A stretch of DNA of 32,000 nt from Candidatus Iainarchaeum sp. (GCA_028713935.1 JAQTNI010000004.1:11756-43755), one strand, 5' to 3'; numbered from the stretch's first letter, positions 2 to 30,369 are shown. The notes: generated by a model from the letters alone, not told the origin. Made by a program: numbers and translations.

Positions 2-424
2 TTGAAGAGACACACATACCCCAGAATATCATTAAGTGTATGCTCTAGAAATCTCTGGAGCGGCGTTTGTATTCTCCTGGCCAAAACAGGATTTCAGTTT
101 ACCGTCTCATATCAAAGACCAAAGAATAACGAAAGTCAAAAATATCTCGTGATGCTAAGAGGTGATGCTAATGTAATAAATTGGATTAATAACATTGGTT
201 TCAAAAATCCAATAAAATATAATCGGTTCCTAATTTGGAAAAAATTTGGATTTGTGCCCTCTGGATTAACTCATGAAGACCAAAAAAAAATTCTAAACGG
301 CACAATAGACCCAAATTCATACTATGTTGAAGAACTTCTGGAAAATGATGGTCTTGTTCCAATGCTAGTTAAACGAAGGCTTAAGGTCAGCCAAAACTTT
401 GAATCTTTTATTCCTAAAGATTAA
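2..424 (+). CDS. C-terminal part of a LAGLIDADG-type (homing-endonuclease-like) protein; the 5' end lies outside the window
   Basis: The ORF is open from the window edge to TAA at 422-424. The pattern RISLSVCSRNLWSGVCILLAKTGF...LRGDANVINWINNIGFKNPIKYNRF resembles the scaffold that follows the second LAGLIDADG motif in free-standing archaeal members. The motif itself would lie upstream of the window, so this is recognition from memory only. Confidence 0.4.
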   Translation: MKRHTYPRISLSVCSRNLWSGVCILLAKTGFQFTVSYQRPKNNESQKYLVMLRGDANVINWINNIGFKNPIKYNRFLIWKKFGFVPSGLTHEDQKKILNGTIDPNSYYVEELLENDGLVPMLVKRRLKVSQNFESFIPKD

Positions 425-453: not shown

Positions 454-529
454 GGGCCTGTAGCCTAGCCTGGATATGGGCGCTCCGCTTCGGACGGAGA
501 GGTCGGGGGTTCAAATCCTCCCAGGCCCG
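454..529 (+). tRNA. tRNA-Arg, anticodon UCG; CCA not encoded
   Basis: Hand-folded cloverleaf. Acceptor stem GGGCCTG (454-460) pairs with CAGGCCC (522-528). D stem is GCCT/GGGC. Anticodon stem is CTCCG/CGGAG with loop CTTCGGA (anticodon TCG at 490-492). Variable loop is 5 nt. T stem is GGGGG/CCTCC with loop TTCAAAT. Discriminator is G529, followed by CAG rather than CCA. Confidence 0.9.
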
Positions 530-554
530 CAGTTATTTTTCTTATTGAAGCAAT

Positions 555-1655
555 TCATACAAGTTGTTTGACTGCCCAATAGGTTGGGTGGTTCTTGGCA
601 CCCAAGCGACGCTTGAATGCATTTAGTTCAGGCGTTTCACTTCCCCCTAAATCAATTGTTTCAATTTCTGGCAATTGTTTTTTTGCTTCTGCAAAAACAT
701 TGAGAAGTGCAAATGTGCTTAATGCCCCAAACCCAGTTGCCTTTCTTGGAATGCCCAGTTCATTTAGCAGGTTTTGGCTTCTCTTTGAAATGCAGCAATA
801 GAAAGCAAGTTTGTCATTGGAAATTTTTTCTCCGACAAAAATGCTTGTTGGAATGTCTCTGCTTTTTCCGCATAACCTGCCAACAATGGCAAATTTTTTT
901 TCATAATCTGATTCTAAAAGATTCCAATAATCTTCCGGCATTGAACCAATGGTCTTGTGTTCTTCGCCAAGCATTTTGAAGTGAGACGCAACTATTTGCT
1001 TTGCTTCCGAAACTGAATATTCGCCCCATTGCCATTCAAGCCCGTGTTGTAACAGAAAGTTGCTGAATCTGTTATAGGAAGAACGGTTCCATTTTGATTT
1101 TATGTAAAGGTTTTCATGCCTGTGAAGGTTGTCAGAATAATTAAACATCTCGCTTAGCTGCAAGATTGAATAGGAAAAAGTTTCGTCTTCGGCAAAAGCA
1201 GTTTCATGCCAAGGTTGCTCTTGAACTGGGGAATAGCCGTGCGCCAAAAAGTGCCTGAATTGTTCCAGAGAAAGGAACCGTATATAAAAAAACTTTCCTT
1301 TGAGTTGCGGGCATGTTTCCAATGCGGTTTTCGCAAAGGCATTTACTGCCCTGAATGAATCTATTCCCCGTGGCGCAACTGCCATGAGATGCCCTCCATC
1401 TTTTTCTTTTTCTCTGCGGTAAACACTGATGCCAAAAATATTTTTTTTGTCAAAATAACGCAGCCCCATTGGATTCAAAATGCTCAAACCTCTTGGATTG
1501 CGGCCAGTGCAATATAAGAGAAACCCAAGATAAGAAAGCCCAAAGGTCCCGTCTTTGAAGTTGTTAATATATGCAGCGTCGCGCTCAGTTAATTGTTTGA
1601 CATGCTGCAATGTAAGAAGTTCTTTTTCTATAGACTCTCTGAAAGAGGCATTCAT
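555..1655 (-). CDS. Hypothetical protein, 366 aa; possibly a DUF2156-like (lysyl-phosphatidylglycerol synthase C-terminal / tandem GNAT fold) protein
   Basis: Long ATG-initiated ORF with protein-like composition. The overlapping + strand ORFs are short and low-complexity. The family assignment is only a weak resemblance in length and motif spacing (...ETFSYSILQL...KSKWNRSSYNRFSNF...) recalled from memory. Confidence 0.6.
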   Translation of the reverse strand: MNASFRESIEKELLTLQHVKQLTERDAAYINNFKDGTFGLSYLGFLLYCTGRNPRGLSILNPMGLRYFDKKNIFGISVYRREKEKDGGHLMAVAPRGIDSFRAVNAFAKTALETCPQLKGKFFYIRFLSLEQFRHFLAHGYSPVQEQPWHETAFAEDETFSYSILQLSEMFNYSDNLHRHENLYIKSKWNRSSYNRFSNFLLQHGLEWQWGEYSVSEAKQIVASHFKMLGEEHKTIGSMPEDYWNLLESDYEKKFAIVGRLCGKSRDIPTSIFVGEKISNDKLAFYCCISKRSQNLLNELGIPRKATGFGALSTFALLNVFAEAKKQLPEIETIDLGGSETPELNAFKRRLGAKNHPTYWAVKQLV

Positions 1656-2570: not shown

Positions 2571-3944
2571 TTACAAAAAGCTTTCTTTTCCTTTAAGGTA
2601 AGAAGTTAGGAATTCCGCGAATTCCTTGTTTTTTGAATAGAGCGCAAGAAGGTTTTTTTCATGCAAGATAACTGTTCTTTTTTTTATTGCTTTTGCAATA
2701 TCCCCGCTTTCCTCTTTTGCAAGGATTTTAAGGTAGGTTTCCAAAAATTTTTCCGCTGAAGTGAATTCCCTTTCTGTTTCAAGCACCCATCTTCCTTTTT
2801 CAATGCGGGGCCCTGACAATGGCTTTGGGTGTGCACGCAAAAATTTTTCACTGTGCTCTTTCATTGAGGCAAGCGGGCCAATTCTTTTCTCTGCTTTTTG
2901 GAGCAGGAGGCTTTCCAGTTCAAACAGGAAAACAATGCTGTTTTTTTCATCGCTCCATTCCGCTGTCTGGCTTGCCTTGAAAGCAGCCAAATCAAGCTGT
3001 TTTGCAATTTTGCAGCCTATCCTTTTTATCTGGCCCCACGCAATGTCAGGCAGTGTGCCTTTCGGATAGGCAATTTCAATTCCGATTAATTCTTTTTTTT
3101 GCAAAATTTTTCTTATTTTTTCAATTGGAAAGGGAATTGTTTTTTCCGGGAAAAAGAATTTCATTGAAGGCTTTTTTAAGAAAGCATTTGCAGCCGCAAC
3201 AATCCTTTCAAACTGTTCAAGCGAAAGCGCTGCAGCAACATTCCTGTTTTTGTCAACAGGGTCAATTATTGCCAGGTGCCCTGGAAATTTTTCCCTCGCC
3301 TCTTTTGGCGCATAATATTTTTCAATGTCAATAATTGTTCCGGGAACCCATTTTGAAATTGCTTTTATTGCCCCCTTGAAACTTTTGTATTTTAGCACAA
3401 GCAATTCAACAACATATCCTGGGACAGAGCTTGTTTTTATTTCAGCGCCATAACTGCCGATTCCCTTGAAAAATTGCCTCAAAAGCCTTGTTTCATTGCA
3501 CAATTTTTTTGAAAGCCTTTTTTTAAGGAAAAGATTGTGCAGAATGCTCCTGTCAACGCTGCTCTGCTTTTGCGATGCATTGCTTATTTTATAGCTTGGA
3601 ACAATTTCAACTTCAAAGCCATTAATCACACCGCGGATATAAGGGTGCTCTGAATACGCTTTTTCCCATTCATGGCCTTTGAAAATTGCTTTTCCTATCC
3701 GCAGGCCTTCTTTTTCAAATTCCCGCCTGCCAAGGCCTCTTGAAAACAAAACAAAAATATCAAGGTCCCTGTCGCCTTTCAAATGAGTGTTTCTTGCGCT
3801 GCTTCCTGCCCATGCAACTCCAATGTGCTTTCCTTCCATTGCCCTTATTTTTCCGATTATTTCTTTGGCAAGTTTTTTTTCAGATTTTTTTTCCTGCTCT
3901 GAAGGGACTGTCCTTTCAAGCACTTGTTTCAGCATAAGCTTCAT
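2571..3944 (-). CDS. cca: CCA-adding enzyme (archaeal class I tRNA nucleotidyltransferase)
   Basis: N-terminal class I nucleotidyltransferase signature GSSARNTHLKGDRDLDIFVLF. The 457-aa length and overall layout are typical of archaeal Cca. Confidence 0.9.
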   Translation of the reverse strand: MKLMLKQVLERTVPSEQEKKSEKKLAKEIIGKIRAMEGKHIGVAWAGSSARNTHLKGDRDLDIFVLFSRGLGRREFEKEGLRIGKAIFKGHEWEKAYSEHPYIRGVINGFEVEIVPSYKISNASQKQSSVDRSILHNLFLKKRLSKKLCNETRLLRQFFKGIGSYGAEIKTSSVPGYVVELLVLKYKSFKGAIKAISKWVPGTIIDIEKYYAPKEAREKFPGHLAIIDPVDKNRNVAAALSLEQFERIVAAANAFLKKPSMKFFFPEKTIPFPIEKIRKILQKKELIGIEIAYPKGTLPDIAWGQIKRIGCKIAKQLDLAAFKASQTAEWSDEKNSIVFLFELESLLLQKAEKRIGPLASMKEHSEKFLRAHPKPLSGPRIEKGRWVLETEREFTSAEKFLETYLKILAKEESGDIAKAIKKRTVILHEKNLLALYSKNKEFAEFLTSYLKGKESFL

Positions 3945-8709: not shown

Positions 8710-9350
8710 ACCTTTTTCCTTTCAAATTTTACTTCCCGGCTTTTTTCATCCAGTTCAAGCAACAATGCATTGCCGTCTTTTACTGGGCCTGCATTGATGC
8801 AGATTGTTTTCCCTATTTTGTCTTCGCCTGCCGCTTCATGGCAGTGCCCGCACAGGTTCACAATGGGTGAAAATTCCTCGATTATTTTTCTCACTGCCTC
8901 AGAGCCAATGTGAACGCCATTGCCCGACAAATCAATTTTCGTGTTTATGGGGGGAAGATGCGTGCACAAAACAATGTTTTTTTCGCCTTTGCACAATTTT
9001 TTTAATTCAGAAAAAATTTTTTCTTCTGAAGAATTTGTTTCTCCGGCATCTCCTGTTTTGCCGCCTCCGAAGCCAATGAATGCAAACCCTGAAATTTTTT
9101 TCTTTTTTGCGTGCAGGGAAATTCCTTTTTCTTCAAATGTTTCAAGCACTTCTTTTGTGTCAACATTGCCTGGCAAAGCAAGAATTTTTGGAAACCCGAT
9201 TGTTTCAATTATTTTTTTGGTGTCGCTTATTCCGCCATAATGCGTGTTGTCGCCAAGCAAAACAACCAAATCAACGCCTTTGGCGTGCTTTAATGCCTTT
9301 TCAAGCATTTTCAAGTCGGAATGAATGTCAGCAAAAACAGCAATTTTCAT
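8700..9350 (-). CDS. Calcineurin-like metallophosphoesterase (MJ0936/YfcE-like)
   Basis: Motifs ADIHSD, LGDNTHYG, PGNVD, CTHLPP and CGHCHE appear in canonical order. The start is placed at ATG 9350 (MKIAVFADIH). The 30 codons upstream in the track ORF cover a conserved non-coding element. Confidence 0.85.
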   Translation of the reverse strand: MKIAVFADIHSDLKMLEKALKHAKGVDLVVLLGDNTHYGGISDTKKIIETIGFPKILALPGNVDTKEVLETFEEKGISLHAKKKKISGFAFIGFGGGKTGDAGETNSSEEKIFSELKKLCKGEKNIVLCTHLPPINTKIDLSGNGVHIGSEAVRKIIEEFSPIVNLCGHCHEAAGEDKIGKTICINAGPVKDGNALLLELDEKSREVKFERKKVWQ

Positions 9351-9354
9351 AATA

Positions 9355-9445
9355 CCGCCCTTTTCTTTTTCTTTACAAGAAAAATAAAAGTATAGGGTGC
9401 CCAAAAGAAAAAGAACCCTAAACTTTTGATAAACAAACAATCACT
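9355..9445 (-). repeat. Copy A of a conserved ~85-90 nt non-coding leader element (Py tract / GGGCACC spacer / Py tract / 3-nt loop / Pu tract)
   Basis: Aligns position by position with 30205-30289, differing mainly by 1-nt indels in homopolymer runs that shift the reading frame. Contains a 14-bp hairpin with one mismatch at 9360-9390. On the minus strand it ends 9 nt upstream of the phosphoesterase ATG. Confidence 0.7.
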
Positions 9446-9507
9446 GTTCAATAATAACCTTTTTAATGATTTATTTTTATTAAATAATCGTCAGGTTGCG
9501 TTTTTAA

Positions 9508-29363: not shown

Positions 29364-29720
29364 TTAACATTCAATGTTGTTTGCCCTTATTGTAACGCTG
29401 CCTGCTGAATAGCCTGCTTTTGCTATTATTAATTCCCTTGTTCCAGAGCCATTAATGTCCGAACACGCCATTGTATCCGGAATTGTAATAATGTTTAAGT
29501 CAATGTTTCCATTGCTTTCAACGCTTAAATCAATTTTTTCTATTGAAAAATTTGTTTGGGCTTTGTTCAGTGCATCAAGAGTGTTTGTTTTTGCAAGGCC
29601 AAGTGCAACAGTCTGCCCTTTTATGGAATTGAAATAACCAAGAATTGCAATGCTGATTACTATGACAAGTGTTGCAATAAAGAGCAATTCCAGGCTTGCC
29701 TGGGCTTTTTTGTCAGCCAT
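29364..29720 (-). CDS. Archaeal type IV pilin (class III signal peptide, Q+1/E+5)
   Basis: MADKKA|QASLELLFIATLVIVISIAILG N-terminus. The start overlaps the upstream stop by 8 nt. Confidence 0.8.
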   Translation of the reverse strand: MADKKAQASLELLFIATLVIVISIAILGYFNSIKGQTVALGLAKTNTLDALNKAQTNFSIEKIDLSVESNGNIDLNIITIPDTMACSDINGSGTRELIIAKAGYSAGSVTIRANNIEC

Positions 29721-30369
29721 ACTTTACACTTACTGCCCCTGAAGAACCTTTTTCAATCACAACATCCTTGAACTGCTTTCCGTTGATTACCTGGCTTCCA
29801 CTGTCAAAATCACAGGCAATTGCCACTGTTTGCGGGGCAGAAAGCATTGTTTCCCCTGTGCAGACAAGAGGTGTGCCGCTGCATGCAGTGGCATCTGGAT
29901 TGTACTGCGAAACAATCATTTCAGCGCTGAAATCTATTTTTTTGTTGAGAGGGTCTGTAAAATTGCAGGCAACAGAGCTTTTTTCTTCCACAAAAACCTT
30001 TATTGTTGATTTTGCATTGCTTGGCGCAATTGAAATCGCGTCAATTTCATTTGCAATCTTTTGCGCGGAAATTTTTGCATTGCCAATCCTTGAAATTTCT
30101 TCTGCGGAATTGTTCGCCATGTCAATAGCGGGAATTACAACGCTTGCAATAAAAATTATTACAAAAGACAGCAAAAACATGAATTCAATTGAAATCTGCC
30201 CACTCTGCCCTTTCTTTTCTTGAAAAGAAAAGAAAGTGCAAGGTGCCCAAAGAAAAGAATCCCGAATCTTTGATAAACAGGACAAATCCTTTTGCGGAGC
30301 AAAAGGCTCTTTTCCCGAGGCTTTTCTCTTTAGAGAAAAGGCTCTCAAATTGCAAATAACATGTTCCAA
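29713..30369 (-). CDS. Pilin-like protein; class III motif KKGQSG|QISIEFMFLLSFVIIF lies 55-60 codons into the only canonical ORF (start uncertain)
   Basis: The Q+1/E+5 pilin motif is clear. However, there is no in-frame ATG, GTG or TTG between ATG 30369 and the motif. The intervening codons coincide with copy B of the conserved non-coding element and overlap the peptidase 3' end. Confidence 0.65.
   Translation of the reverse strand: MEHVICNLRAFSLKRKASGKEPFAPQKDLSCLSKIRDSFLWAPCTFFSFQEKKGQSGQISIEFMFLLSFVIIFIASVVIPAIDMANNSAEEISRIGNAKISAQKIANEIDAISIAPSNAKSTIKVFVEEKSSVACNFTDPLNKKIDFSAEMIVSQYNPDATACSGTPLVCTGETMLSAPQTVAIACDFDSGSQVINGKQFKDVVIEKGSSGAVSVKYG
30205..30289 (-). repeat. Copy B of the conserved ~85 nt leader element
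   Basis: Homologous to 9355-9445. A perfect 12-bp hairpin CTTTCTTTTCTT-gaa-AAGAAAAGAAAG lies at 30210-30236. The third, mirror tract is at 30249-30259. GGTGCCC and TTTGATAAACA blocks are shared. Confidence 0.7.

Follow-up and report, generated by a model that had tools for sequence, protein, structure and literature searches.

The stretch of DNA analysed here (32,000 nucleotides, referred to as the window) originates from a metagenome-assembled genome (MAG) of Candidatus Iainarchaeum and encodes an archaeal Elp3, type IV pilins and a prepilin peptidase. Two of its protein genes, a phosphoesterase that is 100% identical to a protein of a Candidatus Iainarchaeum MAG and a pilin that follows the prepilin peptidase, are each preceded by a copy of a short structured repeat. 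These are copy A (9355-9434) and copy B (30205-30278), both complete elements read on the minus strand; a smaller relative in the opposite orientation, copy C (30307-30344), lies directly upstream of copy B. A preliminary description of copies A and B had interpreted the repeat as a dedicated leader or switch for the two genes. Comparative searches instead identify it as a dispersed repeat that is commonest at tRNA introns and at the flanks of mature tRNAs, and we consider it reasonably probable that copies A, B and C belong to a DPANN family of proliferating, tolerated structured repeats with an intrastrand-triplex architecture.

Organization of the window copies

Copies A and B are B-type elements with the same order of parts on the minus strand. 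Copy A comprises a 5' module (GTTTATCAAAAGTTTAGGG, 9434-9416), a first pyrimidine tract (t1; TTCTTTTTCTTTT, 9403-9415), a linker (GGGCACCCTATA, 9391-9402), a hairpin (9360-9390) in which a second pyrimidine tract (t2; CTTTTATTTTTCTT, 9390-9377) faces a purine tract (t3; AAGAAAAAGAAAAG, 9373-9360) across a GTA loop, and a GGCGG end. The sequence downstream of t3 (GGCGGTATT) contains this GGCGG and a TATT and is followed by the ATG at 9350. Copy B is likewise composed of a 5' module (GTTTATCAAAGATTCGGGA, 30278-30260), t1 (TTCTTTTCTTT, 30249-30259), a linker (GGGCACCTTGCA, 30248-30237), a hairpin (30210-30236) formed by t2 (CTTTCTTTTCTT, 30236-30225) and t3 (AAGAAAAGAAAG, 30221-30210) around a TTC loop, and a GGCAG 3' end (30209-30205). 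The hairpin comprises 14 bp including one A/G mismatch in copy A and 12 bp with no mismatch in copy B, as the preliminary description had stated, and CCCTA in the linker of copy A can pair with TAGGG of its 5' module.

Tract 1 is a candidate Hoogsteen strand, the parallel complement of t3. In copy A the runs of t1 (T2.C.T5.C.T4) correspond to those of t3 (A3.G.A5.G.A4), and in copy B T2.C.T4.C.T3 corresponds to A2.G.A4.G.A3; the T/A run lengths are 5+4 in all three tracts of copy A and 4+3 in all three tracts of copy B. The longest match between t1 and t3 is 13 nt in the parallel and 12 nt in the antiparallel register for copy A, and 11 and 10 nt, respectively, for copy B. The geometry reported earlier for the two copies is thus confirmed in each of these respects, and the earlier claim that conservation is at the nucleotide and not the protein level also holds, because copies A and B are read in different frames.

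When the motif was defined formally as a pyrimidine/purine hairpin of at least 9 bp preceded by a parallel-complement tract of 9 nt or more, the window contained two instances and 200 dinucleotide-preserving shuffles contained none. The exact anchors GTTTATCAAA and TTTGGGCACC, which are not simple sequence, are found within the window solely at copies A and B. An independent Logan assembly (L001) reproduces the sequence of copy A without any difference, and the same element recurs in independent NCBI, Logan and JGI assemblies. Low-complexity coincidence or an assembly artefact, for which one could cite the simple T/C and A/G sequence of the tracts and the Logan contigs that break near copy C, is hardly credible in the face of these results. 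A scan of the window with Rfam 15 passed only a tRNA-Arg, and a relaxed search gave weak microRNA and small RNA matches far below threshold.

The anchor GTTTATCAAA is a conserved repeat module and not demonstrably a promoter. Its reading as a TATA box located ~30 nt before GGGCACC was rejected: it is conserved as GTTTGCCAAAG upstream of a tRNA-Val, where it sits ~125 nt downstream of a better TATA-like sequence, and in intron copies the module pairs with the linker as a stem.

A dispersed family of repeats

A pattern scan with the exact anchors gave one chance match in the GTDB genomes (Flavobacteriales, L002) and no match in the JGI metagenomes. A degenerate pattern (YYYYYYYTTTGGGCASCNNNNACTTTYWTTY) retrieved seven JGI metagenome loci, all seven of which carry a complete element, and the core of copy B is identical at 35 of 35 positions to copies in contigs L013, L014, L018 and L019. 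More copies, including those in the relatives L003 and L005, were collected through a hairpin-plus-third-tract scan and a covariance model (R1), which finds 14 full-length B-type copies and scores copy A at 61.9 bits (E=3e-12) and copy B at 81 bits (E=1e-16). A shorter subfamily with the linker CCTYGGG or GAGG includes copy C and a three-unit tandem array in L005. The set used for analysis consists of 18 copies (17 non-redundant) on at least nine contigs.

The family unit is 40-80 nt in length and is composed of a 5' module, t1, a GGGCA-containing linker of ~12 nt, t2, a loop of 2-5 nt, t3 and GGGCAG; the connector between t1 and t2 is 12 nt in B-type copies and 4-7 nt in the small subfamily. 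In all B-type copies of the alignment (A4), t1 and t3 are each trailed by the same GGGCA(G/C) motif, and in a triplex these two identical G-rich tails would exit the same end of the helix.

The hosts span 40% to 52% GC with an unchanged A/T-rich core, which does not differ at all between hosts of 40% and 51% GC. At positions 102-285 and 1212-1382 of L013, the tRNA flanks are GC-rich and the intron elements are A/T-rich, with a core identical to that of the copy in the 40%-GC window, which suggests either horizontal spread or very strong constraint. Contig L017 is archaeal, with genes for S19e and aIF6. The best named matches of the L014 PurD protein are to Pacearchaeota and Nanoarchaeota MAGs and also to bacteria of the candidate phyla radiation (CPR), a taxonomy that is indicative only. 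No element was present in L009, L010 or six other DPANN loci, and the PurD relatives L020-L025, which are not syntenic, served as element-free controls only. Viral contigs of IMG/VR gave 0 matches, and literature searches for triple-helical or mirror-repeat tRNA introns in archaea returned no description of this repeat family.

Covariation of the three tracts

Run-length indels put alignment A4 out of register, and t1 was assessed by run-length and longest-match statistics. Under run-length encoding, each of the 18 copies has a middle T run in t1 exactly as long as the middle A run in t3, and the 3'-most runs, taken in the same 5'-to-3' order, are equal in all copies except L018a. The runs themselves (middle, 3'-most) differ among copies: 5,4 in copy A; 4,3 in copy B and six others; 4,4 in L003c and L017b; 3,3 in L005-B, the ortholog of copy B in L005; 3,5 in L013b; and 3,4 in L018b. 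In L018a, T6.C.T4 stands against A6.G.A5, with the 3' run off by one, and in the small-type copies the terminal C/G run matches as well. Among the 17 non-redundant copies the longest exact match between t1 and t3 is longer in the parallel than in the antiparallel register in 13, tied in four and shorter in none. The matches within elements sum to 197, compared with 156 +/- 5.3 when t1 and t3 were re-paired between elements, and 0 of 20000 permutations reached the within-element value.

The t2/t3 hairpin is paired in 99.1% of the alignment cells and carries compensatory changes, with both sides altered, at 6 of 12 pairs; no pair in this alignment has a one-sided (G.U) change. The idea that the three tracts change in concert in a parallel register, first formulated on two copies, therefore survived the collection of additional ones, and covariation of the hairpin accompanies it. 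Watson-Crick pairing between t1 and t3, which had been proposed to generate mutually exclusive hairpins, is possible over 10-12 nt in the antiparallel register, but a switch between alternative hairpins is disfavoured, as this register is never the better of the two.

No templated copying process yields a mirror repeat, and each copy is internally consistent despite the differing runs; the parallel, Hoogsteen-compatible register is therefore the property that appears to be preserved. Two other origins of the tracts were considered and rejected. Direct repeats that bind a protein do not account for run lengths that vary among copies in one genome yet are consistent within each copy, and derivation of t1 from t2 as a direct repeat conflicts with a run order that is reversed and not repeated.

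Association with tRNA introns and tRNA ends

The majority of related copies are located within tRNA introns or directly adjoin mature tRNA ends, and they occur in both orientations. In L013/L016, L014 and L019 the match to the Rfam tRNA model covers 159-184 nt, with a 77-102-nt insertion in the anticodon loop of tRNA-Ser(GGA) that consists of a reverse-complemented element starting right after position 37. Introns made of the same kind of units are present in three tRNA-Ser(UGA) genes and, by inspection, in a probable tRNA-Cys in L018 that is called by neither ARAGORN nor Rfam. At tRNA 5' ends, elements of L017 in the window orientation end in GGGCAG/GGCAG exactly at tRNA-Val and tRNA-Gly, and one element of L018 precedes the probable tRNA-Cys. 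At tRNA 3' ends in L003, L014, L017 and L018, a reverse-orientation element begins 0-1 nt past the mature tRNA. Many tRNAs on the same contigs are without the element, as is the tRNA-Arg of the window (454-530). The long-intron tRNA-Ser genes of L013, L014, L018 and L019 were missed by ARAGORN and found solely by the Rfam tRNA model, and tRNA counts in such DPANN bins are probably underestimates.

This distribution bears on an explanation in which the element is an archaeal RNA-processing module that aids presentation of splice or cleavage sites, whether to the bulge-helix-bulge (BHB) machinery, RNase P or RNase Z, or that produces a stable excised or circular intron RNA, with the window copies as strays. 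The hairpin end lies 0-1 nt from the mature tRNA ends, and in L014 the helix that closes the intron (UGCC/GGCA, 4 bp) has BHB-like spacing, 3-nt bulges and a weak central helix (partly by inspection). The tRNA-Ser(GGA) intron is also conserved above the exon, with ~93% identity between L014 and L019 compared with ~87% for exon 1, and the stem that encloses the third tract in introns (UGCAAGGUG / CACUUUGCA) contains G.U pairs that are valid solely on the transcribed strand. We nevertheless regard a processing module as fairly unlikely, given that most tRNAs on the same contigs are without the element and that it also occurs at protein genes and in tandem arrays within spacers. The third tract is not known to contribute to BHB, RNase P or RNase Z recognition. 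Purine-motif triplexes, moreover, have been reported not to form in RNA (PMC4666352).

Insertion at two protein-coding loci

Copy A is placed between a conserved A/T-rich block (aaaaataaatcattaaaaaggttattatt, 9450-9478, minus strand) that is common to relatives and the start codon of the phosphoesterase. In L004 (73% amino acid identity) this block directly adjoins a GTG start and the locus is without the element, and in L003 (85% amino acid identity) 52 nt separate the block from the start and form a partial version without tracts 1 and 2. Because it adjoins the GTG directly in L004, the block is likely to be the ancestral promoter of a leaderless gene. A 34-codon open frame (9347-9451, minus strand), extending from a TTG at 9451 to a TGA at 9349-9347, traverses the whole of copy A and begins approximately at the leaderless start of the relatives. 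Its predicted peptide is LNSDCLFIKSLGFFFFWAPYTFIFLVKKKKRAVL, and the TGA shares bases with the phosphoesterase start codon (ATGA). The equivalent 18 codons of L003 are joined in frame to the gene, and the LFIK motif is preserved with synonymous changes. We infer that the 34-codon frame is translated, and termination-reinitiation coupling may operate at the phosphoesterase after the insertion.

Copy B is located between the prepilin peptidase and the pilin. In the outgroups L009 and L010, the pilin start overlaps or directly follows the peptidase stop (ctATGAaaaaaagggggcag = MKKRGQVSIEF) and the locus is without the element; the closer relative L005 has an orthologous element with different tracts, and window copy B and L005-B match different subfamilies. 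An open frame (30181-30348, minus strand) begins at a TTG that overlaps the peptidase TGA and traverses copies C and B before it enters the pilin (...QEKKGQSGQISIEF-MFLL...). This TTG shares its frame with the pilin across 168 nt (window) or 123 nt (L005), and the in-frame extension retains the class III signal-peptide cleavage motif ...KKGQSGQISIEF.

Within the pilin gene (29713-30348, minus strand), the motif KKGQSGQISIEF lies upstream of the sole in-frame ATG (30180). The nearest upstream starts, a GTG in the window and an ATG in L005, lie in another frame and begin a conserved stretch of 14 codons (M[G/A]RFQLNSCFC...); the sole in-frame upstream start is the TTG at the peptidase stop, which gives a 56-residue leader. 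At the 3' border of the locus B element there is a tandem duplication, GGGCAGAGT followed by GGGCAGATT, of 9 nt in the window and 8 nt in L005. The possibility that copy B is a BHB intron spliced from mRNA was rejected, as no border pairing appeared in the folds.

Copies A and B are lineage-specific additions, because the orthologous sites in relatives are without them or differ. Both insertions may have survived because translation reads through them.

These comparisons also bear on whether the element is a cis-acting RNA leader, in which a U.A-U / C+.G-C triple helix, or a toggle between the t1:t3 and t2:t3 hairpins, controls the stability or translation of the downstream gene. The copies upstream of genes and tRNAs (copies A and B, L005-B, L017a, L017b and L018a) are all in the Py-Py-Pu orientation that would permit a pyrimidine-motif triplex in RNA. 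Transcription should cover the whole element at both window loci, either from the upstream promoter block or through co-transcription with the peptidase gene, and t3 adjoins the start region. Every intron and 3' trailer copy, however, is reverse-complemented relative to transcription, and the RNA there has a single pyrimidine tract to two purine tracts, an arrangement in which a Y.R-Y triplex of the U.A-U kind is impossible. The downstream genes are unrelated and their orthologues work without the element, which is absent from the corresponding sites of close relatives. The register that a switch would use is never the better one, the hairpin is without G.U pairs, and RNA folds of the window copies surpass shuffles only modestly (z = -1.3 to -1.9). 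A leader of this kind is unlikely on balance, and the gene-specific role assigned to the element in the preliminary description is not upheld.

Copy C and companion modules

Copy C, detected on the minus strand by the hairpin-plus-third-tract scan, is composed of GAGC, CTTTTCTCT, aa, AGAGAAAAG, CCTCGGG and AAAAGAG and begins immediately after the stop codon of the peptidase. Its subfamily is shared with units in an intron and a spacer of L014, in the tRNA-Gly trailer of L017 and in the array at 1-215 of L005; the orthologous stretch of L005 at the position of copy C has a different sequence. A hairpin, CCTTTTGCTCCGCAAAAGG (30288-30306, minus strand), represents a companion module (NNTTGCTYCGCAANN) that elsewhere trails small-subfamily units. 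In the RNA fold of the combined C and B region, the distal purine tract of copy C is paired with t1 of copy B.

The location of copy C, which together with several relatives directly follows the 3' end of a gene or tRNA, is consistent with a bidirectional archaeal terminator or insulator in which oligo-T is met first on either strand with a hairpin behind it. Archaeal RNA polymerase terminates at oligo-T, and T-rich tracts lead on both strands of the element. Yet termination would be harmful at several sites that hold copies, namely tRNA introns and the junctions of ancestrally overlapping, co-translated genes, the T runs are mostly 3-5 nt and broken by C, and the mirrored third tract is left unexplained. 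Potential intrastrand triplex (PIT) elements were also without terminator activity in Escherichia coli (PMC4666352), and we judge this explanation very unlikely.

Tandem arrays of the small subfamily with a period of ~57 nt are present at 60-215 (+) in L005, 692-823 (+) in L014 and 2829-3038 (-) in L019, interleaved with short hairpins built on a conserved TTGCTYCGCAA core. A chain of such hairpins makes up nearly the whole of one 129-nt tRNA-Ser(UGA) intron. Three independent Logan contigs with the peptidase gene of the window (L006, L007 and L008) all stop 29 nt past the peptidase stop, inside the hairpin of copy C, and such repeats may be a cause of breaks in short-read assemblies.

Relationship to known structured and mobile elements

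The BoxC/PIT/TMECO repeats of E. coli and other bacteria (Hoyne et al. 2000; Holder et al. 2015, PMC4666352) resemble the window family in several respects. Both have three consecutive homopurine or homopyrimidine blocks on one strand, in the class II order (Py, loop, Pu, loop, mirrored Pu), with a pyrimidine-motif layout on the other, and both are dispersed repeats with dozens of strongly conserved copies outside coding bodies, which occur in both orientations and in some inverted pairs. Loci of both vary between close relatives, and neither has an assigned function; for BoxC/PIT/TMECO, an association with variable loci and the absence of promoter activity, as well as of terminator activity, have been reported (PMC4666352). 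Under the scheme of intrastrand triplex classes I-IV defined in the same study, the t2/t3 hairpin and the parallel relation of t1 to t3 give the window elements a class IV layout (Py-Py-Pu) on the gene strand and a class II layout (Py-Pu-Pu) on the complement, and their block order is that of an intrastrand triplex. The ITxF loop definition of 1-6 nt does not accommodate them, as the hairpin loop is 3 nt and the conserved GGGCA connector between t1 and t2 is 12 nt in B-type copies.

The BoxC/TMECO motif is G/C-rich (CCCTCNCCC...GGGNGAGGG), whereas the window family is A/T-rich (U.A-U type), with single C/G interruptions in its tracts, and has no sequence similarity to it; the TMECO consensus (CCCTCNCCC N3-6 GGGNGAGGG N3 GGGNGAGGG) was not matched. 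For these reasons the two are the same kind of element and not the same family. The window family differs further in its archaeal (DPANN) hosts, its preference for tRNA introns and ends, and the open reading frames that pass through its copies. The most fitting description of it is a new archaeal, A/T-rich form of the intrastrand-triplex repeats.

Other classes of elements share part of this architecture. As in H-DNA mirror repeats, t1 and t2 are homopyrimidine mirror repeats with a short spacer, which is the sequence requirement for H-DNA; t3 is not needed in H-DNA, whereas the inverted t3 on the same strand of the window elements lets one strand close the whole triplex. RNA triple helices of the type found in MALAT1 and the element for nuclear expression (ENE) likewise contain U.A-U triples broken by C+.G-C, of which ~11-14 are potentially available here in the Py-Py-Pu orientation. 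In the ENE, however, a U-rich internal loop clamps a 3' A-rich tail, whereas the three strands of the window element are contiguous and not at an RNA 3' end, and the element is found equally in the orientation that is unable to form this RNA triplex.

Related copies make up most of the 77-129-nt introns at the canonical position 37/38 of tRNA-Ser and the probable tRNA-Cys, as would be expected of archaeal BHB tRNA introns, and the recurrence of almost the same intron sequence across tRNAs and hosts suggests mobility associated with the introns. 'Transposed' tRNA introns of Thermoproteales were reportedly described by Fujishima et al. in 2010. Unlike BHB introns, the window copies lie outside tRNA genes and have no border bulge-helix-bulge in the folds, and the element also occurs outside introns in the opposite orientation.

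In common with miniature inverted-repeat transposable elements (MITEs) and with repetitive extragenic palindromes and bacterial interspersed mosaic elements (REP/BIME), the family is short, non-coding, multi-copy and structured, and it has subfamilies, tandem or inverted clusters and presence/absence differences. Orthologous sites that are filled or empty, as used to recognize MITEs, were found here: L004, L009 and L010 are empty and L003 is partial. The terminal inverted repeats of MITEs were not found, the element ends (GTTTATCAAAG... and ...GGGCAG) being non-complementary. In contrast to these classes, no linked transposase or RAYT (REP-associated tyrosine transposase) was identified, and the mirrored third tract is a feature of neither.

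Proposed behaviour of the family and the folding molecule

We propose that the family spreads as a selfish repeat, by transposition or recombination, and that it would persist where extra sequence is tolerated, namely in tRNA introns, at mature tRNA ends and in intergenic spacers. In the window, its insertion would have separated the bodies of two protein genes from their ancestral promoter or start, with expression probably rescued by frames through the insertions: the 34-codon upstream frame at the phosphoesterase and, at the pilin, an in-frame extension of the cleavable class III signal peptide. Selection would act on the three-stranded fold, and the element would have no gene-specific regulatory role. 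In the window orientation, RNA could by its base order form a U.A-U / C+.G-C triplex. A fold at the DNA level, either single-stranded or H-DNA-like, is favoured because both DNA strands can form an intrastrand triplex and the hairpin is without G.U changes, and the occurrence of both orientations makes single-stranded DNA the most plausible folding molecule.

Several observations weigh against this proposal. No transposase, terminal inverted repeats or clean target-site duplication was found at the elements, and the flanking direct repeats are imperfect and of unequal lengths (GGTTATTATTG / GGTATTATG at copy A, the 13-nt TTGAAAAAAGAAA in L005, and GGGCAG...GGGCAG at copy B). The end of the element proximal to a tRNA is always the hairpin end, which is unexpected under random insertion. 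The higher conservation of the intron than of exon 1, together with the strand-specific G.U pairs of the intron stem, points to an in-situ function at the RNA level, at least in introns. Some of the copies used for covariation are orthologues or relatives of the same subfamily and are thus not fully independent, and the BoxC/TMECO triplex was seen in vitro and not in vivo (PMC4666352). A stronger proposition, that the three-stranded fold is under selection as part of a DPANN-specific triplex-structured mobile or processing module that drives the growth or gain of tRNA introns and inserts at gene starts, is at present doubtful, although it merits serious consideration. If true, this would be the first case in archaea of a natural triplex element that is conserved in sequence and occupies a defined genomic niche, the tRNA exon boundaries.

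Work on intrastrand-triplex repeats has dealt almost solely with the G/C-rich enterobacterial BoxC/TMECO motif. The present family provides a richer natural experiment, being A/T-rich and archaeal and having many run-length variants that keep the Hoogsteen register, and it offers comparative evidence that a three-strand geometry is preserved beyond the hairpin alone. Its concentration at tRNA introns and ends ties non-B structures to the gain and enlargement of archaeal tRNA introns. The elements are also relevant to annotation of DPANN genomes, as they create long tRNA introns missed by ARAGORN, false N-terminal extensions, hidden start codons (as at the pilin) and probably assembly breaks.

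Additional observations

Two features of the compared contigs are separate from the window copies. Contig L010 (1-3057) encodes a pilus ATPase (T2SSE) with an intein that contains a LAGLIDADG domain, according to precomputed Pfam matches. The element-bearing contig L019 carries a fluoride riboswitch (crcB motif; 1560-1629, minus strand; 49 bits, E=1e-10) that is unrelated to the repeat.

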